Shown in pieces: positions 1 to 30,732 of a stretch of 64,000 bases of DNA. A program made the translations under genes and the position numbers. Below the pieces are notes generated by a model. The model was not told the origin of the DNA, made no database searches, and saw nothing but the letters and a program-made list of their open reading frames with translations. The stretch lies in the sequence record MN850651.1. One strand, 5' to 3'. Position 1 is the first letter of the stretch, and each line of letters starts with the position of its first letter. This DNA comes from Escherichia phage moskry.

Positions 1-1944
1 CTTAATGACGACCCGAGGACCACTCCTATTGTCGATTCTGCTGATAAGGGTGTTTACGTTCTAGACCATGATGCTGGCACATTTAAACGTGTGTTTGGTA
101 ATACTGAAGAAGAACGCCGTCGTATTGAACCTGGGTACACCAGTATGTCTACTGATGGTGTTGAGTTATCTATTTCATCTAGTAATTTTAAATTTTTAGA
201 ATCAGATATTGTTGATGACCCAAAAACACAAATCAAGTACGGTTTAATCGGTGCTGTTAAATATGAGTATCCTCGCGAATGGTTGGCTGATAAACATTAT
301 CATATGATGGCATTTATTTCAACTGAAGACTCTCAATGGGAATCGTTCACTCCACAACCGATGGAATACTACGCCGAGCCATTCTTTAGTTATTCTAGAA
401 AGTCTGGTACTCGATGTTGGATTAATAACTCAGACAAGGCCGTTGTAATTTATTCTGATTTACTTTACACTAAGGTTATTGAGAATCATCCACTTAGTTC
501 TTCAGACCGTGAAGTTCATGAATATTGGAAAGACGGTGACTGTACAATAGTGATGCCTAACGTAGATTTCACCGGATTTAAAAAATATGCATCCGGCATG
601 ATTTTCTATAAATCATCAGGTGAGATTATTTCTTATTATGATTTTAGTTATCGTGTTAGAGATAATGTTTCTATAATTTGGAAGCCTACTAATATATTCT
701 TAACAGCATCGTTACAAAACCAAGAAAAAGATACCACATGGACTCCTGTAGAAGAGAACGGTATTGCAGACCCAGATTTACGACCATTGCTCACTACAAT
801 GATGCCGGAGTCTTATCTTTTAGATAATACAAACTTCGAAGCATTCTGCGAGGCTTATATTCAGTATCTTTCTGACGGTTATGGGACCCATTATAACAAC
901 CTTTTGAATCTTATTAAAAATCAGTATCCGCGAGAAGAACATGCGTGGGAATATTTATGGTCCGAGATTTATAAACGAAACATTTACTTAAACGCCGAAA
1001 AACGCGATTTAGTGTCTCGTTTCTTTGAATCAAGAAGTTATGACTTCTATTCAACTAAAGGAACTGAAGCATCATATAAATTCTTGTTTAAAGTGCTTTA
1101 TAACGAAGATGTTGAAATTGAAATTGAATCTAGTTCTGGGACCGAATATGATATCATCATTGAATCTGATTCGCTGACAGAAGATTTGGTCGGACAAACC
1201 ATATACACCGCGACAGGACGTTGTAATGTGACGTATATCGAGAGAAGTTACTCTAAAGGTAAATTACAATGGACTGTAACAATTCACAACCTCTTAGGAC
1301 GTTTAATCCAAGGACAGGAAGTTAAAGCTGAAAGACTCCCTGGTTTTGAAGGTGAAATTGTTCGTGGTATTAAAGGTAAAGAGCTTTCTCAGAACAACAT
1401 CGATTACATAAATCGTGGTAGAGCATACTACGTAATGAAGATTAAATCTAAACTTCCATCATCTCGTTGGAAATCAGACGTATTACGTTTTGTTCATCCG
1501 GTTGGATTTGGATTTATCGCAATTACCCTTCTCACAATGTTTATTAACACCGGATTAACACTTAAACATGTTGAAACCATTATTAATAAATACAAAAACT
1601 ATAAGTGGGATTCTGGATTACCGACTAAATATGCAGACCGAGTGGCTAAATTAGACCCACAAGGAAATGTTGAGTTTGACCCTATTACAGGTAAAGCGAT
1701 ATATGAAATAGGCCCTATGGCTGGTCAAGATTATCCATTACCTGAAGATTATAACGCTGAAAACAATAACTCCATATTTCAAGGTCAACTTCCATCGGAA
1801 CGACGTAAACTGATGAGCCCATTATTTGATGCGTCCGGAACAACATTCTCTAGATTTAGAGATTTGGTTGAACAGCGGTTAATCGATAATGTAGGAAATC
1901 CAAGAGACCCCGTGAATCCACCACAGGTTAAATTAGATGAATGA
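1..1944 (+). CDS. 7: Baseplate wedge protein gp7, 3' portion (5' end lies outside the window)
   Basis: Frame is open from nt 1; ORF ends at 1944 and is followed by gp8-gp12 in T4 order. Confidence 0.85.
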   Translation, partial: LNDDPRTTPIVDSADKGVYVLDHDAGTFKRVFGNTEEERRRIEPGYTSMSTDGVELSISSSNFKFLESDIVDDPKTQIKYGLIGAVKYEYPREWLADKHYHMMAFISTEDSQWESFTPQPMEYYAEPFFSYSRKSGTRCWINNSDKAVVIYSDLLYTKVIENHPLSSSDREVHEYWKDGDCTIVMPNVDFTGFKKYASGMIFYKSSGEIISYYDFSYRVRDNVSIIWKPTNIFLTASLQNQEKDTTWTPVEENGIADPDLRPLLTTMMPESYLLDNTNFEAFCEAYIQYLSDGYGTHYNNLLNLIKNQYPREEHAWEYLWSEIYKRNIYLNAEKRDLVSRFFESRSYDFYSTKGTEASYKFLFKVLYNEDVEIEIESSSGTEYDIIIESDSLTEDLVGQTIYTATGRCNVTYIERSYSKGKLQWTVTIHNLLGRLIQGQEVKAERLPGFEGEIVRGIKGKELSQNNIDYINRGRAYYVMKIKSKLPSSRWKSDVLRFVHPVGFGFIAITLLTMFINTGLTLKHVETIINKYKNYKWDSGLPTKYADRVAKLDPQGNVEFDPITGKAIYEIGPMAGQDYPLPEDYNAENNNSIFQGQLPSERRKLMSPLFDASGTTFSRFRDLVEQRLIDNVGNPRDPVNPPQVKLDE

Positions 1945-2941
1945 TTCAAGTGTTATCTATCGTGCAATAGTTACATCAAAATTTAGAACAGAGAAAATGC
2001 TGAATTTTTATAATTCAGTTGGGGATGGAGATGATAAGAACTCCATTTATATTACGTTTGGACGTTCAGAGCCTTGGGCGTCAAATGAAAATGAGGTGGG
2101 CTTCGCCCCACCTTATCCTACAGATTCTGTTCTTGGTGTTACTGATATGTGGACCCACATGATGGGTACCGTTAAAGTTTTACCTTCAATGTTAGATTCT
2201 GTTATTCCTAGACGTGATTGGGGAGATGTGCGATATCCAGACCCTTACACGTTTAGAATTAACGATATAGTCGCATGTAATACTGCTCCGTACAACGCGA
2301 CAGAAGTTGGAGCCGGTTGGTTAATTTACCGTTGTTTAGATGTCCCTGACGTAGGGCTCTGTTCAATAGAATCTTTAGATAATAAAGATGAATGTCTTAA
2401 ATTGGGTGGTAAATGGACTCCGTCTGTTCGTTCTATGTCTCCTCCTGAAGGCAGAGGCGATGCTAATGGGGTTATCGAAACCGGTGATGGATATATTTGG
2501 GAATATCTTTATGAGATTCCTGCCGATGTGTCAATTAACCGTTGCACTAATGAATATCTTGTAGTTCCGTGGCCGGAAGAAATTAAAGAAGACCCCACCC
2601 GTTGGGGATATGAAAATAACTTAACTTGGCAACAAGACGACTACGGCTTGATTTATCGTGTTAAAGCTAATACAATGCGGTTTAAAGCATATTTTGATTC
2701 TGTTTATTTCCCTGAGGCAGCTTTGCCTGGTAACAAGGGATTTAGACAGATATCAATTATCGCAAACCCATTAGAAGCTAAGAAAAATCCAAATGACCCT
2801 AATGTTAAAGCAGAAAAGGATTATTACGACCCTAGAGACCTGCAACGTCATTCTGGTGAAATGATTTATATGGAAAACCGACCACCTGTTATTATGGCAA
2901 TGGACCAAACAGAAGAAATTAACATTTTGTTTATGTTTTAA
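1937..2941 (+). CDS. 8: Baseplate wedge protein gp8
   Basis: 334 aa, same length as T4 gp8 and near-identical to its remembered sequence (MNDSSVIYRAIVTSKFRTEK...). Confidence 0.9.
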   Translation: MNDSSVIYRAIVTSKFRTEKMLNFYNSVGDGDDKNSIYITFGRSEPWASNENEVGFAPPYPTDSVLGVTDMWTHMMGTVKVLPSMLDSVIPRRDWGDVRYPDPYTFRINDIVACNTAPYNATEVGAGWLIYRCLDVPDVGLCSIESLDNKDECLKLGGKWTPSVRSMSPPEGRGDANGVIETGDGYIWEYLYEIPADVSINRCTNEYLVVPWPEEIKEDPTRWGYENNLTWQQDDYGLIYRVKANTMRFKAYFDSVYFPEAALPGNKGFRQISIIANPLEAKKNPNDPNVKAEKDYYDPRDLQRHSGEMIYMENRPPVIMAMDQTEEINILFMF

Positions 2942-2944
2942 TTA

Positions 2945-2969
2945 GGGAGCCTTCGGGCTCCCATTTTTG
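2945..2969 (+). terminator. Intrinsic terminator after gene 8
   Basis: Hairpin GGGAGCcuucggGCUCCC followed by a T-run. Confidence 0.6.
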
Positions 2970-2973
2970 TGTC

Positions 2974-2981
2974 TATAAATA
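2974..2981 (+). promoter_or_regulatory. T4-type late promoter TATAAATA upstream of gene 9
   Basis: Exact TATAAATA about 30 nt upstream of the gp9 ATG. Confidence 0.7.
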
Positions 2982-3013
2982 GAATATAATATCGGACAAC
3001 AAAAGGCAGAATT

Positions 3014-3886
3014 ATGGCATTTTTTAAGCAAACTCCTAAACAATTAATCGATACCGGCGAAATTGGTAATGCCTCAACAGGTGATATCTTATTCGACGGT
3101 GGTAATAAAATAAATGACGATATCAACGCTATTTACAATGCATTTGGCGATCAACGTAAAATGGCCGTAGCAGATGGAACCGGACCTACAGGTCAAACTA
3201 TTCATGCCACAGGTTATTATCAAAAAGGAAAGGCGGTCGATTATCAAACTCCTATTAAACCAGGCACTATGCATGATATTGATGCTTCTGATGGTGGTGT
3301 GATTGTTATTATTGACCGTCCTGAATTAGGTGACTCCGTAGAATTCATAAACTCTAATGGGTCTATTTCTGTTAACAATCCTTTAAGTATCCAAGTAACT
3401 GATGGTTCAATTAAAGGTGTTCTTAATAATCTTGTTATTTCCACCCCTTATACCCATGTTGTTCTTCGTTGTGTTGAAATTAATGGGCCGACTTCAGTAT
3501 GGAATTATTCTACTGATAGCATGTTTGGGCAGAAAGAATCTCCTGTCGATGGGACTTGGAGTCTTACAGGAAACACAGTTTCTATTCCTCTGTTTTATCG
3601 CACAGATTATAACATGGCTAAATTGCTTGTTACATGTCAATCCGCTGACGGTAGAAAAATAAAAACATGTGAAATAAATATTCTAATAGATACAATTAAC
3701 TCAGAAGTTCTTTCTACCGAATTTGCAGTAATGCGAGTTGGTAATGTAGATGAAACCGACGAGATTGCTAATATTAGCTTTAGTATTATTAACAACTTTG
3801 CTACTATGACGATTACATCCGATATTATTGGATTACGTTCGGCAGTTAAAATTATCTCAACTCAGAAAATTGGGGTCGCTCAATAA
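3014..3886 (+). CDS. 9: Baseplate wedge / long tail fibre attachment protein gp9
   Basis: 290 aa; N-terminus LIDTGEIGNASTGDILFDGGNKIN matches T4 gp9; late promoter upstream. Confidence 0.9.
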   Translation: MAFFKQTPKQLIDTGEIGNASTGDILFDGGNKINDDINAIYNAFGDQRKMAVADGTGPTGQTIHATGYYQKGKAVDYQTPIKPGTMHDIDASDGGVIVIIDRPELGDSVEFINSNGSISVNNPLSIQVTDGSIKGVLNNLVISTPYTHVVLRCVEINGPTSVWNYSTDSMFGQKESPVDGTWSLTGNTVSIPLFYRTDYNMAKLLVTCQSADGRKIKTCEINILIDTINSEVLSTEFAVMRVGNVDETDEIANISFSIINNFATMTITSDIIGLRSAVKIISTQKIGVAQ

Positions 3887-5691
3887 TGAAACAAAATATT
3901 AAAATTGGTAACGTCGTTGATGACGGACAAGGCGATTACCTTCGTCGAGGTGGTGAAAAAATAAATGAGAACTTTGACGAAATCTATTATGAATTAGGTG
4001 ATGGTGAAGTTCCTTATGCCGCTGGTGCATGGAAGACTTATGATGCGGCTGATGGTCTTAATCTTAAGGCTGCTTGGGGTAAATCTTATGCAATTAATAC
4101 TACTTCTGGGCGAGTTTCGGTAAATCTTCCTAAAGGGACAATTGCAGACTATAATAAAGTTATTCGTGCCCGTGACGTATTTGCAACTTGGAACATTAAC
4201 CCTGTTACTTTAATTCCGGCAAACGGAGACACGATTAAAGGTTCTTCATCTCCGGTGGAAATTAACGTTCAGTTCTCTGATTTAGAATTAGTTTATTGTG
4301 CTCCTGGACGTTGGGAATACATCAAGAACAAACAAATTGACAAAATAGTTAGCTCTGACATTAGTAACGTTGCTCGTAGAGAATATCTGGTTGAAACCCA
4401 AGGTCAGACCGATTTCATGGATGTTTTTAACGGGACCTCTTATAACGTTAACAACATTCGCGTAAAACATCGTGGCAACGAATTGTACTATGGTGATGTA
4501 TTCAGTGATAACAGTGATTTTGGTTCTCCAGGCGCTAATCCTGGTGAACTGGTTGCACTCGATGGATTTAATATTAGATTACGCCAACCGTGTAATGTTG
4601 GGGACACTGTACAAATTGAGACATTCCTAGATGGTGTTTCTCAGTGGCGTAGTTCATATACTCGTCGCCAAGTTCGCATTTTAGATAGTAAATTGACTGC
4701 TAAAAAGTCTATTGACGGAAGTATTTACGTCACTGATTTGAGTACGTTCCGGTCTATTCCATTTACAGCATTTGGTATTAATCCTACGGAACCACCTAAC
4801 CCTAATTCGTTAGAAGTTCGCTTCAATGGTATTCTCCAAGAATTAGCTGGTACTGTTGGAACTCCTATTTTCCGTTGTGAAGGTGTGGATGCTGATTCTG
4901 AAGAGTCATGCGCTAATCTCGGTGGGACGTGGACTCAATCGTATACAGATTATGCGATTGAATATACTGATAATATCCCTAGCGCAATTCTGTTTGACCG
5001 TCAATTTGAAGACCAAGACATTATTACCATCACATGGTTTAATAACGATTTAGGAACTCTTCTTGAAATGGAAGAAATCCTTGATGTCGCTGATGAGAAA
5101 TATGTTTCTCAAGGGTCTAACATTGAAATTACTGGTGACGTTGCATTAACCGATTTCGATAAAATTGGATGGCCTAATGTAGAACCTGTTCCTAAGTATG
5201 AACGTGAATTCTCGACTATCTCAGCAATATTTGATACAATTTATCCTGTCGGGACTATTTACGAAAATGCGGTTAACCCTAATAATCCGGCAACTTATTT
5301 AGGTTTTGGTTTGTGGAAAATTTGGGGACAAGGCAAAGTATTAGCAGGTTGGAATGACGACGCATCCGATCCTAATTTTGCATTAAATAATAATGACCTT
5401 GACGTCAATGGTAACCCTACTCATACCGCAGGTGGTACCGTTGGTGTAACAACCATCACATTAGAAAATGCTGATTTACCAGCTACACAAACCGATGAAA
5501 AGGTTCTTATTTCTGATGATAATGGTACAGTAATTATAGGCGGTTGCCAATATGACCCGGATGAAGAAGGTCCTATTTACACTAAATATCGTGAAGACCA
5601 TGCAAAGACTAATGGATCTCATGTTCCAGCGCGTTCTATAACTAATATTCAGCCATCTATAACTGTATACCGTTGGGTAAGGATTGCATAA
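3886..5691 (+). CDS. 10: Baseplate wedge protein gp10
   Basis: 601 aa (T4 gp10 is 602 aa); position between gp9 and gp11. Confidence 0.9.
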
Positions 5692-23352: not shown

Positions 23353-24636
23353 ATGAGTAAAATCCAAAAATTATTGCGTGAATCTACAACGTCTACTAGC
23401 AACTCAATTGGTCGCCCAAATCTCGTTGCTTTGACTCGCGCTACGACTAAATTAATATATTCTGACATTGTAGCAACACAAAGAACTAATCAACCTGTTG
23501 CTGCTTTTTATGGTATCAAATATCTTAACCCAGATAACGAATTCACATTTAAAACTGGCGCTACTTATGCGGGTGAAGCTGGATACGTAGACCGAGAAAA
23601 AATTACTGAGCTCACAGAAGAATCAAAAGTCACACTAAATAAAGGCGATTTTTTCAAATATAATAATATCGTCTATAAAGTGTTAGAAGATACACCATTT
23701 GCAGATATTCAAGAAAGTGATCTAGAATTAGCTCTTCAGATTGCAGTCGTTCATTTAAAGGTACGGTTATTTTCAGATGCAGCGGTAACAAGCAAATTTG
23801 AAAGCTCTGATAGCGAAATTTCTGATGCAAGATTCCAGATTAATAAATGGCAAACTTCAGTCAAATCTCGTAAACTTAAAACTGGTCTCACGGTTGAATT
23901 AGCGCAAGATTTGGAAGCGAATGGATTTGATGCCCCTAACTTCTTAGAAGATTTGCTTGCTACTGAAATGGCAGATGAAATTAATAAAGATATTCTTCAG
24001 TCTTTAATTACTGTATCGAAACGTTATAAAGTTACTGGAATTACTGACACTGGATTTATTGACTTGAGCTATGCGTCAGCTCCAGAAGCAGGTCGTTCAT
24101 TATATCGAATGGTGTGTGAAATGGTATCACACATTCAAAAAGAGACAACTTATACTGCAACGTTTTGTGTAGCCTCAGCTCGTGCAGCTGCTATTCTTGC
24201 TGCTTCTGGTTGGTTAAAACATAAGCCAGAAGATGACAAGTATCTTTCACAAAATGCTTATGGATTCTTGGCAAATGGATTACCTCTTTACTGCGATACC
24301 AACAGCCCGTTAGATTATGTTATTGTGGGTGTTGTAGAAAATCTCGGCGAAAAAGAAATTGTAGGGTCCATCTTTTATGCTCCATACACTGAAGGAGTAG
24401 ATTTAGATGACCCAGAACATGTCGGTGCTTTTAAAGTTGTAGTTGATCCAGAAAGCTTGCAACCGTCTATCGGATTATTGGTTAGATATGCTTTATCAGC
24501 AAATCCTTACACAGTAGCAAAAGACGAAAAAGAAGCGAGAATAATTGATGGTGGGGACATGGATAAAATGGCAGGACGTTCAGACTTGTCTGTTTTACTC
24601 GGTGTTAAATTGCCTAAAATTATTATAGATGAATAA
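23353..24636 (+). CDS. 24: Capsid vertex protein gp24
   Basis: 427 aa as in T4; gp23 paralogue; late promoter upstream. Confidence 0.9.
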   Translation: MSKIQKLLRESTTSTSNSIGRPNLVALTRATTKLIYSDIVATQRTNQPVAAFYGIKYLNPDNEFTFKTGATYAGEAGYVDREKITELTEESKVTLNKGDFFKYNNIVYKVLEDTPFADIQESDLELALQIAVVHLKVRLFSDAAVTSKFESSDSEISDARFQINKWQTSVKSRKLKTGLTVELAQDLEANGFDAPNFLEDLLATEMADEINKDILQSLITVSKRYKVTGITDTGFIDLSYASAPEAGRSLYRMVCEMVSHIQKETTYTATFCVASARAAAILAASGWLKHKPEDDKYLSQNAYGFLANGLPLYCDTNSPLDYVIVGVVENLGEKEIVGSIFYAPYTEGVDLDDPEHVGAFKVVVDPESLQPSIGLLVRYALSANPYTVAKDEKEARIIDGGDMDKMAGRSDLSVLLGVKLPKIIIDE

Positions 24637-24637
24637 A

Positions 24638-24669
24638 CAAAAAAAAAAGGGACCTTACGGTCCCTTTTT
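24638..24669. terminator. Bidirectional terminator between gene 24 (+) and rnlB (-)
   Basis: A-run, hairpin GGGACCuuacGGUCCC, T-run. Confidence 0.7.
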
Positions 24670-24671
24670 CG

Positions 24672-25670
24672 TTATGATACTAATTCAATCCATGCAGGAC
24701 GCAGAACATCTTGCACCATTCTGACTAATTCTTTCTTAACAAGATTCGGATTATCAGATGATGTTAATACAATACCTTCACGAGAAGTTTCTTCCAGAAT
24801 ATCTTGAACAGTCAATCCCATCACTTTGCCAAAATCTTTTGGCGTTACAGTCCCAATCTTAGAAATCACATTATTAATACGATTTAATGTAACATAACAA
24901 GCTAGAACATCAAGCAAGTTTTTGTCAGTTTCGGTTAATGGAACCTGAGTTTTAATAGGCTTATCAGACTTTTTCTTTTCACTGAATTTAGAGTTCTTGC
25001 ACTTAATAGCTACACGAGTACCGTTTGGCAGCCATTTAGGGAAACAGGGCTTCAGAACATAACCTTCTGCCGTATTATCGCCAATAACATTAGCATCAAA
25101 TACGCAATTATTTGCTTCGACAAGGTCTTCCGATGCCGTGGCGTTATAAGCGGCTAAGACGGAATCAAGGTCATTTGGAATCATGATAAGAGAATCAAAT
25201 GTTCCACGTCCAAGCATTGGTGCCATTTTAAAACCGAATTCATTACAGAAATCTTGCATTTCGTAATCGGTCAAATACGTATTATCACCACTTTCTGTAT
25301 TGATAAGGATATCGAACACGTAAAAATCTTTTTCACCGTAGTCAACACCTTTCTGGATTCCACCACCAGCGAATTCACCGAATACTTGATATGATACGGC
25401 TCGAGCTGTGTACATGAATTCCTGAACGGCTTTAATAGCTTTATCATACTTCTTGAGTATGATTTCATAACCATAAAAATCTTCTGCTGGAAGAATAGGG
25501 CCTGTGCGCTTGGCGCATGTGACGTTGTCACGTTCAATTATTAACGAGAAGTTAGTCCCATGGATTTTCTCACGTGCTACCCAAACACCAGTAGTCAAAC
25601 CATTAGTGTAGAGTTTTTCAATAAACTTAGAGTTGTAGTGGTTTTCAAGACTGCTGTATTTCTTAAACAT
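24672..25670 (-). CDS. rnlB: RNA ligase 2
   Basis: 332 aa; nucleotidyltransferase motif I KIHGTN; MotA-box middle promoter upstream. Confidence 0.85.
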
Positions 25671-25761
25671 AAATCACCATTATAAATAATAATATCAAAA
25701 TAATTAGCAGAGACTCTGTCTCCGACCAGATGTTTAATTTGAATGGATAGAACCTAGATTC

Positions 25762-25787
25762 ATTATACCATCAAAAAATGTAAAGCA
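25762..25787 (-). promoter_or_regulatory. MotA-dependent middle promoter for rnlB
   Basis: MotA box TGCTTTA, 13-nt spacer, -10 TATAAT. Confidence 0.55.
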
Positions 25788-25789
25788 TA

Positions 25790-26041
25790 TTAGAACTTGA
25801 TTTCTATCCAATGACCATCACGCTGGTCGTGATTAATTTTATACTGAAAGCCATTATCACGTAACCACTGCCCGACTTGCTCAGTGATAGTTAAATCATT
25901 CTTTGACGGATAGTATGTAAATTGTGTCTGGCCTTTATCAGCGGCTTTCTCTGCCATCACAGAGAAGTTAGTAATAAAATCACTCAACAAATTAGCTTTA
26001 GTGGCCAGAGCCCTTTCTCTTAATTCCTGTGCAAAACTCAT
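25790..26041 (-). CDS. Hypothetical protein (T4 24.2-like position)
   Basis: 83-aa ORF; position only. Confidence 0.45.
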   Translation of the reverse strand: MSFAQELRERALATKANLLSDFITNFSVMAEKAADKGQTQFTYYPSKNDLTITEQVGQWLRDNGFQYKINHDQRDGHWIEIKF

Positions 26042-26232
26042 TTCTTCACCTTTTTGTTAATCAAACGTTTACGGTATACAACTTTTTCTTTTGCTTTAAA
26101 CTTTGACCGAGCTGTCTCGGCTTTAGTCCATAGTAATCCAACTTCTTTAGGTTGTAAACCGATTTTTTGAGCAATTTCTACGAATGAAAATCCCGCCTCA
26201 TGTAATGTATAAACTTCAACTTCAGCTCTCAT
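26038..26232 (-). CDS. Small helix-turn-helix protein (T4 24.3-like position)
   Basis: ORF-track start is a TTG; ATG at 26232 preferred; HTH-like FSFVEIAQKIGLQPKEV. Confidence 0.4.
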   Translation of the reverse strand: MRAEVEVYTLHEAGFSFVEIAQKIGLQPKEVGLLWTKAETARSKFKAKEKVVYRKRLINKKVKK

Positions 26233-26295
26233 AATCAATCCCGTATTATTTGGTTTGTGCCATTATATACATCAATCTCAAGATGTGTTTTGTAT

Positions 26296-26327
26296 GCTTT
26301 AAAAACGAAGAAAGGGGCCGAAGCCCC
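26296..26327 (-). terminator. Terminator after hoc
   Basis: Hairpin GGGGCuucgGCCCC followed by a U-rich tract on the - strand. Confidence 0.6.
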
Positions 26328-26331
26328 TTGA

Positions 26332-27750
26332 TTATGGATATGTATAGATGATACCAGTTTCCAAAGCAGTTTTATGGATGATGTATCCATTACGTGATTC
26401 TTGAACATCAACTTCTGGATAATCTTTCATCATCTTCTGAAGAGTGTAACGATGCAGGTAGTATTTACTATCTGGATCTTCAGTTTTCCAATCTTTACCT
26501 TCTTCAGTCATTTTTTGGATTTCATCCATAACCCACCATCCGCACCAGATGTAAGCTGAAGTACGATGTGGAAGAGGATGAACATAAGGTAATTCACCTT
26601 CTGGTTCTGGAGCAACTTTATCGGTTACCTGAACTTGACCTTCTGCTGTAATAGTTTTGCTATCGTAATCAGTTGCAGTAATAGTTGCAGTAACTTCAAT
26701 AGTTTGACTTCCAATAGATGAGGTATCAACGGTATATACATTAGTTGACCCTTCTACAGGAGAAGAATCTTTCTTCCATGAATACTCAATTTGCGCTTCT
26801 TCTGGAGCATCAGTGACATTAGCGGTAAATGTAGCCGAAGCATCTTGCTGAACGTTAATAGAAGGAGGAGTCAATGTAACCCGTGGATTCATTGTCTTCT
26901 TATTAACCGTTAATGATACTTCATTCGAAGTAACTTCCTTTGCATCATAATCTGTCGCGGTTACTTGGGCTACACATTTAATTCTTTTTACCCCGCTTGT
27001 AGTCGGAGTATAGCTAAATGTAGAGTTAGTTTCTCCACCAACCTGTGAATCATCTACATACCACTGATACGTAGCAGACGCTCCAACCGGTTGAGAAGCT
27101 AAGGCAGCAGTAAATTGAACTGGGGTTCCAATTACTCCGGCTGAAGGACTATTGGGAGTTACTGCCAACGTAGTTGTCTGTGTCTTTTTATTAACAGTCA
27201 GTGACACTTCATTAGAAGTAACGCTTAGTGCGTCATAATCTGTTGCGGTTACTTGAGCCACACACTTAATTCTTTTTACCCCGCTTTCGGCAGGAGTGTA
27301 ATTGAACGTAGCGTTAGTTGCTTCACCAACAGGAGAATCATCTACATACCATTGATAAGTAGCGTTTGCGCCTGATGGCTGCGAAGCTAAAGCGGCAGTA
27401 AATTGAATAGCTGTTCCTATTACTCCAGCGTCAGGGCTATTAGGAGTTACAGCTAAGGTAGTCGTTTGTGTCTTGTTTTGAACTGTGATAGTTGTAGTAG
27501 CTTCTGCTGTTTCAGCTTCAGCTTCTGGAACTGTATTTGTTGCAACTACTTTAATAGTCTTTTGACCGGCAGGTCCTTTTAGTACATAACTAAAAGTTGC
27601 TTCAGCTCCATCTTGTGGAACATCATCCACAGACCAAGCATATGTAATAGGTCCATCTCCAGTTTGACCACTGGGTGTAGCAGTAAACTGCTTAGTCTCA
27701 TCTATAACTCCAGTAGGTGTTTTAGGAGTTATATCAACTGTAAAAGCCAT
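26332..27750 (-). CDS. hoc: Highly immunogenic outer capsid protein Hoc with an extra tandem Ig-like domain
   Basis: 472 aa versus 376 aa in T4; N- and C-terminal regions match T4 Hoc; a 96-aa Ig-like domain is present twice in tandem. Confidence 0.85.
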   Translation of the reverse strand: MAFTVDITPKTPTGVIDETKQFTATPSGQTGDGPITYAWSVDDVPQDGAEATFSYVLKGPAGQKTIKVVATNTVPEAEAETAEATTTITVQNKTQTTTLAVTPNSPDAGVIGTAIQFTAALASQPSGANATYQWYVDDSPVGEATNATFNYTPAESGVKRIKCVAQVTATDYDALSVTSNEVSLTVNKKTQTTTLAVTPNSPSAGVIGTPVQFTAALASQPVGASATYQWYVDDSQVGGETNSTFSYTPTTSGVKRIKCVAQVTATDYDAKEVTSNEVSLTVNKKTMNPRVTLTPPSINVQQDASATFTANVTDAPEEAQIEYSWKKDSSPVEGSTNVYTVDTSSIGSQTIEVTATITATDYDSKTITAEGQVQVTDKVAPEPEGELPYVHPLPHRTSAYIWCGWWVMDEIQKMTEEGKDWKTEDPDSKYYLHRYTLQKMMKDYPEVDVQESRNGYIIHKTALETGIIYTYP

Positions 27751-27759
27751 AACTTATCC

Positions 27760-28428
27760 TTATTTTAATGTTACGAAAGAAGAATTACGAGTTTCACGAA
27801 TTAGAACTGATCCATCGCGATTAATATAATAAATTAAGCTAAATAATGTTTGGTGAGCAGAAGCATGCACAAAACTAGTTGGGCGAGATTTCCAATCTGG
27901 GGTTTCGGCTATCCATTGATAAATCCACCAAGGAACAGTAACATATCCTGGGCCTTTGCCTAATTTAATGAGTGTAGGACTAAAATTTTCAGGCAGAACA
28001 AATTTTACTTCTTTATTTACCTCTGGTTCAGGCTCTTTTTCGGATTCAACAATCTGAGTAATTGCTTCTTCGAATTTATCATGGTCGAATTCTTTTTCTT
28101 GTTCGACAACTTCTAATACTTCAACTTGTTCTGTTGGAGAATCAAACAACAGAATAGCTTCTTCTTTAACTTCTTCGTTGGTGAAATTAACACCGTCCAC
28201 ATCATCTGCGGCAGTAATTAAATCGGTGATAGATAATCCATCAGTTTCAGGTAATGGTTCATCAGCCAGTGCGTTAAGAGCTTCTTCGATATCAATAACA
28301 ATATTATCGAATGATTTTGTTTTCTTAACACTAATGCCAAATTGTTCCGCGTATTCAAACAGTTTAGCTTTGGCTTCCTTTTTATCAGAAAGAGCACGTA
28401 ACTCTTCAATATAGTCTTTATCGATCAT
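27760..28428 (-). CDS. inh: Putative inhibitor of prohead protease
   Basis: 222-aa acidic protein directly after hoc as in T4; RBS GAGGAA. Confidence 0.5.
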   Translation of the reverse strand: MIDKDYIEELRALSDKKEAKAKLFEYAEQFGISVKKTKSFDNIVIDIEEALNALADEPLPETDGLSITDLITAADDVDGVNFTNEEVKEEAILLFDSPTEQVEVLEVVEQEKEFDHDKFEEAITQIVESEKEPEPEVNKEVKFVLPENFSPTLIKLGKGPGYVTVPWWIYQWIAETPDWKSRPTSFVHASAHQTLFSLIYYINRDGSVLIRETRNSSFVTLK

Positions 28429-28441
28429 GGTATTTCCTCAT

Positions 28442-28449
28442 TATAAATA
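28442..28449 (+). promoter_or_regulatory. Late promoter TATAAATA for uvsW
   Basis: Exact match about 30 nt upstream of the uvsW ATG. Confidence 0.65.
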
Positions 28450-28478
28450 TAACTATATTTATTACATGGTAATTTGAC

Positions 28479-29993
28479 ATGACTGACATTAAAGTACATT
28501 TTCATGATTTTAGTCACGTGCGCATTGAATGCGACGAAAGTACGTTTTACGAACTTCGTGACTTTTTTAGCTTTGAAGCTGACGGGTATAAATTTAACCC
28601 AAAATATCGCTATGGGCAATGGGATGGTAGAATTCGACTTTTAGATTACAATCGTTTGTTACCATATGGACTTGTAGGTCAAATAAAAAAGTTCTGTAAC
28701 AATATGAGTTATTCTGTATGGATTGACCCTAAAATCTTTGAGACTGAAGACCTTACCAGGGAAGATTTTGACGCATGGCTTTCTAAACAAGAAATTTATT
28801 CTGGCAACGCCAAAATTGAACCACATTGGTATCAAAAAGATGCAGTATATGAAGGACTAGTTAATCGTCGTCGAATTTTAAACCTTCCAACATCAGCAGG
28901 TAAATCACTAATCCAAGCACTTTTAGCTCGATATTATCTAGAGAACTATGAAGGTAAAATTCTCATTATCGTCCCTACAACGGCATTGACAACTCAGATG
29001 GCTAATGATTTTGTTGATTATCGCTTGTTTAGTCATTCGATGATTAAGAAAATTGGCGGTGGTGCTGATAAAGCGGACAGAGCTAAAAACGACGCTCCAA
29101 TTATTGTTGGCACATGGCAAACGGTAGTTAAGCAGCCTAAAGAATGGTTCTCTCAGTTCGGTATGATGATGAACGATGAATGCCACTTAGCAACAGGCAA
29201 AAGTATTTCTTCAATCATCTCAGGATTAAATAATTGCATGTTTAAATTCGGTTTATCCGGCTCATTAAGAGACGGAAAAGCCAATGTAATGCAGTATGTA
29301 GGCATGTTCGGCGAAATCTTCCGTCCTGTTAGCACGTCTAAATTAATGGAAGATGGACAGGTAACTGAGCTTAAGATTAATAGTATTTTCCTTCGTTATC
29401 CAGATGAATTCGCCATTAAATTAAAAGGTAAAACATACCAAGAAGAAGTTAAAATTATTACCGGACTAAAACGTCGTACAAAGTGGATTGCTCAACTTTC
29501 AGTCAAATTGGCTAAGAAAGACGAGAACGCCTTTGTAATGTTTAAACACGTTACACACGGTAAAGAAATATTTGAAGCTATTAAAGAGCTTGGATACGAA
29601 AAAGTTTATTACGTATCAGGTGAAGTTGATACTGAAACACGTAACGCGCTTAAAGTCATGGCAGAAAATGGTAAAGGCATTATTATTGTCGCATCATACG
29701 GAGTATTCTCTACTGGTATTTCAGTCAAGAATCTTCATCATGTTATTTTTGCTCATGGTGTTAAATCAAAAATTATCGTACTTCAAACCGTAGGTCGTGT
29801 GCTTCGTAAGCACGGTTCTAAAGCTGTTGCTACAGTTTGGGATCTCATAGATGACGCAGGTGTAAAACCTAAATCATTAAATACTAAAAAGAAGTATACT
29901 CATCTTAATTACTTGTTAAAACACGGTATTGATCGTATCCAACGTTACGCTGATGAGAAATTTAACTATGTAATGAAAACAATTAATTTATAA
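28479..29993 (+). CDS. uvsW: UvsW SF2 DNA/RNA helicase
   Basis: 504 aa; Walker A LPTSAGKS and DECH box; late promoter at 28442. Confidence 0.9.
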   Translation: MTDIKVHFHDFSHVRIECDESTFYELRDFFSFEADGYKFNPKYRYGQWDGRIRLLDYNRLLPYGLVGQIKKFCNNMSYSVWIDPKIFETEDLTREDFDAWLSKQEIYSGNAKIEPHWYQKDAVYEGLVNRRRILNLPTSAGKSLIQALLARYYLENYEGKILIIVPTTALTTQMANDFVDYRLFSHSMIKKIGGGADKADRAKNDAPIIVGTWQTVVKQPKEWFSQFGMMMNDECHLATGKSISSIISGLNNCMFKFGLSGSLRDGKANVMQYVGMFGEIFRPVSTSKLMEDGQVTELKINSIFLRYPDEFAIKLKGKTYQEEVKIITGLKRRTKWIAQLSVKLAKKDENAFVMFKHVTHGKEIFEAIKELGYEKVYYVSGEVDTETRNALKVMAENGKGIIIVASYGVFSTGISVKNLHHVIFAHGVKSKIIVLQTVGRVLRKHGSKAVATVWDLIDDAGVKPKSLNTKKKYTHLNYLLKHGIDRIQRYADEKFNYVMKTINL

Positions 29994-30018
29994 GGGCTTC
30001 GGCCCTTAGGAGATAAAA

Positions 30019-30249
30019 ATGGTACTTGAATTTAAACAATTTTTATACGAAGCATCTATTGACGAATTCATGGGTAAAATTGCTAGTTGTCATACCTTAG
30101 AAGGGCTTGAAGAATTGGAAGCTTATTATAAGAAACGTATAAAAGAAACGGAATTAAAAGATACAGATGATATTTCTGTCAGGGATGCCTTAGCAGGTAA
30201 GCGTGCCGAACTTGAAGGCGATGATGAGGATGTGGAAGAAGACTTCTAA
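30019..30249 (+). CDS. UvsW.1-like small acidic protein
   Basis: 76 aa; RBS GGAG; follows uvsW. Confidence 0.6.
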   Translation: MVLEFKQFLYEASIDEFMGKIASCHTLEGLEELEAYYKKRIKETELKDTDDISVRDALAGKRAELEGDDEDVEEDF

Positions 30250-30251
30250 TT

Positions 30252-30286
30252 AAAAAAAGGCCCGACCTTTTTGGAAGGGCCAAAAA
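30252..30286. terminator. Hairpin terminator between uvsW.1 (+) and the uvsY operon (-)
   Basis: GGCCC...GGGCC stem flanked by A-runs on both sides. Confidence 0.5.
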
Positions 30287-30307
30287 CCATAGGCAAAAAA
30301 GGTAACA

Positions 30308-30475
30308 CTATAGTAAAAGTTGGGTTTCGTTCAATTGCTCTTCTGAACTTTCTGAAACCGGCAATTGTTGGACATAATTATAACAAGGACCAGGATGTGC
30401 TGGACCTTTGTCTGTTTCAACAACCAATGCAGAATCGATTGGAGTTTTACAGACAACACAAATCTTATCTGACAT
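30308..30475 (-). CDS. Small 55-aa Cys-rich protein (uvsY.-2-like position), absent from the ORF track
   Basis: Hand translation: MSDKICVVCKTPIDSALVVETDKGPAHPGPCYNYVQQLPVSESSEEQLNETQLLL; RBS GGAGG 5 nt upstream; terminator downstream. Confidence 0.45.
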   Translation of the reverse strand: MSDKICVVCKTPIDSALVVETDKGPAHPGPCYNYVQQLPVSESSEEQLNETQLLL

Positions 30476-30507
30476 GATTGCCTCCTAAGTTGAAATTACA
30501 TATCTAT

Positions 30508-30732
30508 TTATACCACTCGCATGCACATATCGATACCCATATCTTTTGTATAAAAATACTCGTCGATGTACCCAGCAAACTTCCCTTTAATATAAAGGAC
30601 GTCTTCGCCACAAGGATGGTCTGCCAGGATACGAATATCCTGACGACGTAGACGATACTTTTCCATTAAGAATTTAATTTCAGTTTCAAATTCTTCATCA
30701 TTATTAAAGGCATCTTCAATTGAATAACGCAT
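30508..30732 (-). CDS. UvsY.-1-like protein
   Basis: 74 aa; start overlaps the uvsY stop (TAATG). Confidence 0.55.
   Translation of the reverse strand: MRYSIEDAFNNDEEFETEIKFLMEKYRLRRQDIRILADHPCGEDVLYIKGKFAGYIDEYFYTKDMGIDMCMRVV

Follow-up and report, generated by a model that had tools for sequence, protein, structure and literature searches.

A diverged tandem copy of immunoglobulin-like domain 2 in the hoc gene of Escherichia phage moskry, probably one state of a recombining copy-number polymorphism

The gene hoc of Escherichia phage moskry codes for a head fibre with one immunoglobulin (Ig)-like domain more than that of phage T4, which raises the question of where the extra domain came from and what it might do. 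The window analysed here is a stretch of 64,000 nucleotides (nt) from this phage (sequence record MN850651.1), with hoc at positions 26332–27750. T4-type Hoc (highly immunogenic outer capsid protein) sits as a monomer at the centre of the gp23 hexamers and is dispensable for growth. We document the anatomy of the gene, the age of its internal repeat and the selection on it, the copy-number series among relatives and the recombinant junctions. Taken together, hoc in the window is, with good confidence, an old allele class with two domain-2 units (A and B) inside a recombining copy-number polymorphism, for which a longer fibre and altered binding are predicted. It would be one allele class of Hoc, the non-essential fibre decorating the capsids of T4-like phages, and one state of a polymorphism of one, two or three domain-2 units (376, 472 and 568 amino acids, aa) that is spread across Tequatrovirus and Mosigvirus.

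In the list of open reading frames (ORFs), hoc is an intact ORF with an ATG start on the minus strand. Its product was matched in a phmmer search by T4 Hoc (5vf3_Z, 376 aa, E 7.9e-222) and by PHROG 1149, 'Hoc-like head decoration' (E 1.1e-143). The phmmer alignment fell into two stretches, with residues 1–109 of the query on T4 Hoc 1–109 and residues 189–472 on T4 Hoc 93–376; since T4 Hoc aligns only to these two stretches, the extra 96 residues represent an additional copy of T4 domain 2. The gene divides as follows:

26332–27750, minus strand: hoc coding sequence, 472 aa plus a stop codon at 26332–26334 (ORF list, phmmer, PHROG)
27475–27750, minus strand: Ig-like domain 1 (D1), aa 1–92, aligning with T4 Hoc 1–92; a beta-sandwich in the AlphaFold2 (AF2) model, with predicted local distance difference test (pLDDT) scores of 82–94
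27187–27474, minus strand: repeat unit A, first copy of Ig-like domain 2, aa 93–188 (repeat searches, A clade of the unit tree)
26899–27186, minus strand: repeat unit B, second copy of Ig-like domain 2, aa 189–284 (repeat searches, B clade of the unit tree)
26623–26898, minus strand: Ig-like domain 3 (D3), aa 285–376, aligning with T4 Hoc 189–280 (AF2 model)
26335–26622, minus strand: C-terminal capsid-binding domain, aa 377–472, near-identical to T4 Hoc 281–376 with few substitutions

Pfam Ig_3 and I-set matched domain 3 at residues 289–373. T4 Hoc 281–376 has been defined as the capsid-binding domain, and its conserved residues are listed in the same paper (PMC10385173); both QESRNGY (the E-S-R-N-G loop) and CGWWVMD (the W-W pair) were found in the C-terminal domain of the window protein. 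In its capsid-binding domain, its string of Ig-like domains and its genomic position, the product thus has the sequence characters of a Hoc in every respect examined.

A direct-repeat search of the locus returned one pair of 288 nt (26893–27180 and 27181–27468, spacing 288, 78% identity), and Tandem Repeats Finder reported 26893–27474 with a period of 288, 2.0 copies, 79% matches, 1% indels and a score of 726. Aligned in frame, units A and B share 77.8% of their nucleotides and 85.4% of their amino acids, a similarity far beyond chance. They differ at 64 of 288 nt (11, 10 and 43 differences at codon positions 1, 2 and 3, respectively). The differing codons comprise 34 synonymous and 14 non-synonymous ones, and the 14 amino-acid differences lie mostly in predicted loops or at strand ends of the AF2 model. 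With a period of 288 nt or 96 aa, each unit spans one whole T4 Hoc domain 2, and the reading frame is kept. Unit B is the copy nearer to T4 domain 2 (95% aa identity, with 86% for unit A). These features, together with the dN/dS given below, are those of an in-frame tandem domain duplication in which both copies are retained by purifying selection.

A reading made earlier from the letters alone (the sequence-only reading) had described Hoc as 472 aa long against 376 aa in T4, with the 96-aa domain 2 occurring twice in tandem as a diverged 288-bp direct repeat. Both statements were borne out, the former by the ORF and the phmmer alignment and the latter by the repeat searches and the unit alignment. 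Its coordinates, 26896–27183 and 27184–27471, are correct and denote the identical repeat in the codon phase of aa 190–285 and 94–189; it did not mention the strand. Two of the checks that it proposed were also informative: the units proved homologous when aligned at the nucleotide and protein levels, and Hoc lengths among relatives form the series of 376, 472 and 568 aa.

In order to place the allele among its relatives, a systematic sample of 60 was drawn in even steps down the ranking of the 662 phage records matched by the hoc query. Two-unit genes (about 1419–1425 nt) accounted for 21 of the 60 sampled records, one-unit genes (about 1131–1161 nt) for 31 and three-unit genes for two, the remainder being partial or divergent. 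Among the best 120 protein clusters from a database of metagenome and genome proteins, 81 were 376–378 aa long, 30 were 468–472 aa and nine were 567–570 aa. Domain-2 units were located as one, two or three copies across these length classes, with two misfits: P0111 (378 aa) has two units, and the divergent P0118 (567 aa) has one unit past the cut-off. Since two-unit hoc is frequent and also present in the long-deposited phages RB27, AR1 and PP01, the 472-aa form is an established allele class, found in about a third of related phages, and by no means special to this genome.

In a 24-kb comparison, the window shares 99.1% identity with vB_EQ1 and AV110; JS09, G53 and mar005p1 stand at about 98%, and all five are of the Mosigvirus type. 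The genomes at least 98% identical to the window include both hoc states. In the near-relative sets, which were drawn from the top hoc-gene matches and the top 24-kb matches, hoc is 1419 nt long in vB_EQ1, F31, G53, WFbE185 and pEK20 and about 290–300 nt shorter in AV110, JS09, SA79RD, SA35RD and MRostami-2023e. Three-unit hoc was found in UGKSEcP2 and EC101. The resulting five-Ig proteins are 570 aa long in UGKSEcP2 (locus positions 1434–3146) and 568 aa in EC101 (440–2146), each with three domain-2 units, of which unit 1 is A-type, unit 2 mostly B-type and unit 3 diverged, with an A-like 5′ part and a B-like 3′ part; the pattern of unit 3 hints at a past expansion followed by partial contraction. 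Another length variant is the one-unit Hoc of vB_EcoM_G50 (386 aa, locus positions 301–1461), which is 10 aa (30 nt) longer than that of T4.

The age of the duplication was assessed from non-synonymous (dN) and synonymous (dS) divergence estimated by the Nei–Gojobori method. For A versus B in the window, dN was 0.110, dS 1.13 and dN/dS 0.10, and RB27 gave similar values for its first and second units, u1 and u2 (dN 0.134, dS 1.11). Between the window gene and T4 hoc, the values were dN 0.063 and dS 0.27 for D1, dN 0.059 and dS 0.34 for D3 plus the C-terminal domain, and dN 0.043 and dS 0.28 for unit B and the T4 unit. Identity between first and second units was uniformly 75–78% in six two-unit genes. 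In a neighbour-joining tree of 28 domain-2 units, the two- and three-unit genes of both genera, Mosigvirus and Tequatrovirus, all placed their first units in the A clade, where the single units of L005 and G50 also fell. The second units made up the B clade, together with the T4 single unit and every single unit from the close relatives in Mosigvirus. A further branch was formed by the third unit of five-Ig genes. Single units nested inside the A or the B clade and not outside both. Considering the dS between A and B and the separate clades that each span two genera, the duplication is much older than the divergence of the alleles, including the split of the window allele from that of T4.

The single-unit genes carry traces of recombination between the two units. 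A global alignment of the window gene with AV110 hoc left one exact gap:

27148–27435, minus strand: 288-nt segment absent from AV110 hoc, corresponding to gene nt 316–603

This gap opens at nt 40 of unit A and closes at nt 39 of unit B, and the remaining AV110 unit has the A state at its first seven informative sites and the B state at the other 57 (Fisher p 1.6e-9). Nucleotide typing was used for mapping such switches, the three robust diagnostic positions available at the protein level being too few for this. A scan of IMG/VR contributed 21 loci, mostly of divergent Hoc types, four of which were useful. The junctions, in unit coordinates, are as follows:

nt 12–18: A-to-B switch, AV116
nt 24–33: A-to-B switch, NicPhage and G2469
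nt 33–39: A-to-B switch, FL18
nt 39–43: A-to-B switch, AV110
nt 43–54: A-to-B switch, IMGVR L003
nt about 70–78: A-to-B switch, IMGVR L004
nt 108–129: A-to-B switch, KIT03 (22 A sites, then mostly B; p 1e-12)
nt 210–214: A-to-B switch, G50
near the unit 3′ end: switch in JK38 and Shinka, whose units are nearly pure A
two switches: fPS-2, an A–B–A mosaic

At least seven different switch points were found among chimeric single units with an A-type 5′ part and a B-type 3′ part. The single unit of T4 itself is a mosaic: its nt 1–62 show no differences to RB27 u1 and eight to u2, its nt 63–288 show 51 differences to u1 and 23 to u2, and a further A-like patch lies near nt 217–264. The simple single-switch chimeras all have the polarity A-5′/B-3′, as is predicted for deletion by unequal crossing-over within an A–B tandem. 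The suggestion in the sequence-only reading that a repeat of this length serves as a substrate for recombination is supported by this comparison, with one, two or three units in relatives and A/B chimeras among the single-unit alleles. We propose that the copy-number states are interconverted and shuffled by homologous recombination between A and B, in the form of unequal crossing-over, gene conversion and exchange during co-infection.

Exchange seems to affect the Ig string as a whole as well. The DNA of the window is 96–98.6% identical to that of RB69, the type species of its genus, over positions 24000–26607, the Hoc C-terminal domain included, and is 66–78% identical or unalignable across the Ig string (26608–27687), the break falling where D3 meets the C-terminal domain. 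In the comparison with T4 DNA, identity is about 90% for D1 and for D3 plus the C-terminal domain, 73% for rnlB and 78% for the BLAST segment 27181–28465 (unit A through D1, and inh). Since the break with RB69 coincides with the D3/C-terminal boundary and the Ig string resembles T4 more closely than the flanking sequence does, the string behaves, as far as these alignments indicate, like a cassette that can be exchanged while the capsid anchor is conserved. This suggests that Ig strings have been swapped between genera, the one in the window being nearer to Tequatrovirus alleles than the flanking genes are.

With regard to possible routes of exchange, SegE promotes non-reciprocal exchange between T-even phages at the inh/uvsW locus. 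The T4 homing endonuclease gene segE sits between the hoc/inh region and uvsW (T4 locus positions 144–761), and the gap between inh and uvsW in the window is just 50 nt (28429–28478). SegE-driven exchange could help to spread hoc alleles.

Pfam PKD, PKD_3, Ig_2 and related families matched both unit A and unit B. An AF2 model of the hoc product, built from 31 two-unit homologues, contains four consecutive beta-sandwich domains over residues 1–377 with pLDDT mostly 85–95, and its top Foldseek matches in the PDB include four-Ig fragments (Dscam1, Sidekick Ig1–4 and ICAM-5 D1–D4, E ~1e-12). Since the repeat period corresponds to one structural domain, it is reasonable to expect a fibre that is one Ig domain longer, as had been suggested from the sequence; the four modelled domains and the four-Ig matches support this as a prediction. 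The four-domain Hoc fibre of T4 measures 180 Å (PMC10385173), to which the extra domain would add roughly 45 Å. The calculated net charge at pH 7 is −24 for the window Hoc, −21 for that of AV110 and −14 for that of T4.

Hoc is a non-essential, acidic protein that has been implicated in virion dispersion, in binding to the E. coli surface and in adherence to fucosylated mucin glycans (PMC10385173, PMC9958956, PMC9271167), and each head carries 155 Hoc fibres (PMC10385173). In phage PNJ-9, Hoc domain 2 bound MUC2, for which S183, L184 and T185 were required (PMC11853027). The sequence NEVSLTVNK occurs in both units of the window protein, at aa 180–188 and 276–284, and in the 31 two-unit homologues S183, L184, S279, L280 and T281 are invariant and T185 nearly so. 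By the presence of the S-L-T motif, the protein is a candidate for the mucus-adherent Hoc proteins of the BAM model. The second unit is likely to give a longer fibre with two candidate glycan-binding domains on each of the 155 fibres, and altered adhesion to mucus or to host surfaces is a plausible result of the extra domain. The two-unit fibre would display two copies of the S-L-T-bearing domain, and its weak binding to glycans or surfaces would probably be altered in reach and avidity.

Three other origins of the extra domain have little probability. An assembly artefact, in which the segment was joined wrongly or duplicated falsely, is one of the ways in which the sequence-only reading said it could fail; it is very unlikely, to the point of being negligible. 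Tandem repeats can trouble assemblers, and the KNP5 RefSeq record NC_055713 has a gap of 990 N exactly over this part of hoc, but the units are 22% diverged, mainly at third codon positions in a frame that stays open, and the A–B arrangement recurs at 90–98.6% identity in many independently sequenced phages. A recent duplication in the lineage of the window phage, with the three-Ig Hoc of T4 as the ancestral form, would be a simple event, and the reference phage indeed has three Ig domains. It is nevertheless highly improbable given a dS of 1.13 between A and B compared with about 0.3 between the window gene and T4 hoc, A and B clades that each hold alleles of two genera, and single units that lie inside these clades and include A/B chimeras. 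Hardly any weight falls on import of the domain from a divergent four-Ig hoc of the RB69 type. At 471 aa, RB69 Hoc can be aligned with the window protein over its whole length (58% identity), but its two middle domains lack specific orthology to A or B: D2a is 52–54% identical to both, D2b 39–40% to both, and D2a and D2b are 41% identical to each other. A and B were accordingly rejected as orthologues of the RB69 middle domains, the domain identities being unspecific.

A more serious alternative, still an unlikely one in our estimation, is that A and B first diverged as alleles of a single-unit domain 2 and were joined by one unequal or illegitimate crossover. Pure-A and pure-B single units would then be ancestral, and the chimeras would derive from later exchange between three-Ig and four-Ig genes; we set the same low probability on these two parts jointly. 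Single units of nearly pure A type (IMGVR L005, JK38, Shinka) and nearly pure B type (PhiZZ6, AV116) do exist, A is always upstream of B as one founding event predicts, and many switch points lie near the D1 flank as flank-anchored allelic exchange predicts. Against this stands the observation that most B-type single units examined (those of T4, AV110, NicPhage, G2469, FL18, L003, L004, PE37 and KIT03) open with the A-type 5′ end found in their nearest four-Ig relatives, and that within Mosigvirus, at no more than 5% divergence, single units are nested amid B units of four-Ig alleles, for which repeated loss is the simplest explanation. Since single units nest inside the clades and most B-type singles carry A-type 5′ ends, we rather favour the derivation of many three-Ig alleles, that of T4 included, from a four-Ig A–B ancestor. 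The direction implied by the sequence-only reading, a domain gained relative to T4, is probably wrong, the duplication being older than the allele split and the T4 unit being an A/B mosaic. A further step, which we take only tentatively, would see unit number as a polymorphism that switches recurrently between one, two and three, with the three-Ig state of T4 as secondary and with adhesion strength and distance as the properties that are tuned.

Several points weigh against our preferred reading, that of an old A–B allele class in a recombining polymorphism. Exchange between three-Ig and four-Ig genes paired through the conserved D1 and D3 flanks could yield the same polarity as unequal crossing-over, and a good many switch points are concentrated in the first ~60 nt of the unit, as flank-anchored exchange would explain, rather than at the longest A/B matches. 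The data fit both routes; by either, A and B recombine, and copy number changes or is transferred repeatedly. In the window, the longest perfect A/B matches are 21 nt (unit nt 189–209) and 17 nt (124–140), and because they are so short, we expect a lysate to show expansion or contraction only rarely; hoc would not be expected to act as a fast contingency or phase-variation locus. The nucleotide-level analysis covers about 25 hoc genes, and the direction of change is, on this evidence, a matter of probability rather than proof. Since AF2 predicted the C-terminal domain poorly (pLDDT < 50), the coordinates give no full-length fibre geometry. What is said here of fibre length, capsid occupancy and adhesion is prediction. 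S-L-T also lies in the last beta-strand, and its conservation may reflect structure or folding rather than ligand binding.

The genes around hoc are arranged with uvsW (28479–29993, plus strand) first, followed on the minus strand by inh, hoc, 24.3, 24.2 and rnlB; the order inh–hoc–24.3–24.2–rnlB is the usual one in T-even phages and matches that annotated in relatives. The neighbours on the minus strand (ORF list and PHROG) and a feature found by consensus scan are:

27760–28428, minus strand: inh (hoc.1)
26312–26329, minus strand: intrinsic-terminator-like hairpin, AAGGGGCTTCGGCCCCTT then a T-rich tail, directly 3′ of the hoc stop codon
26038–26238, minus strand: 24.3
25790–26041, minus strand: 24.2
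24672–25670, minus strand: rnlB

The records of G2469, G50 and fPS-2 annotate a terminator at the matching site after hoc. A scan of 27751–30512 found no exact T4 late-promoter motif, TATAAATA, on the minus strand from the hoc start up to 30505; the same motif was present on the plus strand at 28442–28449, ahead of uvsW. Transcription of hoc presumably starts further upstream or from a variant promoter. The gene rnlB (RNA ligase 2) is an intact ORF of 332 aa in the window and is annotated as two coding sequences in the closest relative, vB_EQ1 (locus positions 3581–4419); the split may stem from a frameshift or from an error in the sequencing behind that record. In the hoc locus of Shigella phage KNP5 (NC_055713), positions 533–1522 are the 990 N mentioned above, which cover the end of D1 and the domain-2 repeat, and hoc is annotated as a mere 588-nt fragment. 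The domain-2 repeat seems to have broken this public assembly.

T4 Hoc (5VF3 chain Z, 8T1X) shares gene and genomic position with the window hoc, and its D1, D3 and D2 are 84–95% identical in aa to D1, D3 and unit B; the window protein differs in its extra copy of domain 2 and is more acidic. The Hoc proteins of RB27, AR1, PP01, vB_EQ1, mobillu and vB_Eco_F31 (472–474 aa), and those of many other T-even phages, have the identical architecture of D1, A, B, D3 and C-terminal domain. These two-unit relatives are 88–98.6% identical to the window gene in DNA, with protein cluster P0009 at 96%, and differ from it by point differences only. The annotations seen in two-unit records do not mention the duplication and read, for example, 'Hoc-like head decoration', 'PKD domain protein' or 'capsid and scaffold protein'. 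RB69 Hoc also has four Ig-like domains and a capsid-binding domain, and its flanking genes are 96–98.6% identical to those of the window, but its Ig cassette is highly diverged and its middle domains are not specific orthologues of A and B. A structure of Hoc Ig domains from RB49 is 3SHS. Hoc homologues with one Ig-like domain (PG7), two (PNJ-9 and the short Hoc of Muldoon) and up to ten (Serratia phage Muldoon) have been described (Fokine et al. 2023, PMC10385173), and the principle of a conserved capsid anchor with a variable number of Ig-like domains is shared with the present case. What differs, and is absent from that paper, is variation between near-identical genomes, in one specific domain and with traceable recombinant junctions. 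In the literature searched, only general variation in Ig number was found; the tandem copy of domain 2, the series of one, two and three units and the chimeric single units, that of T4 included, were not. A 472-aa allele and variable Ig number in Hoc are already known; the feature in the window is real and ordinary, and the comparison of copy number and chimeras across T-even phages is a modest lead.

Hoc is the standard example of mucus adherence by phages and a main T4 platform for vaccine display, and nearly all of this work has been carried out with the three-Ig protein of T4. The four-Ig form is present in about a third of related coliphages and the five-Ig form in some, and near-identical genomes differ in hoc state alone. 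The repeat is of practical concern for annotation and assembly as well, at least one RefSeq genome having been left with a gap by it. The window phage or vB_EQ1, each paired with AV110, would provide natural isogenic-like pairs for studying the effects of fibre length and domain-2 dosage on mucosal retention, dispersion and immunogenicity, and the number of Hoc units may be relevant to the choice of therapeutic phages.

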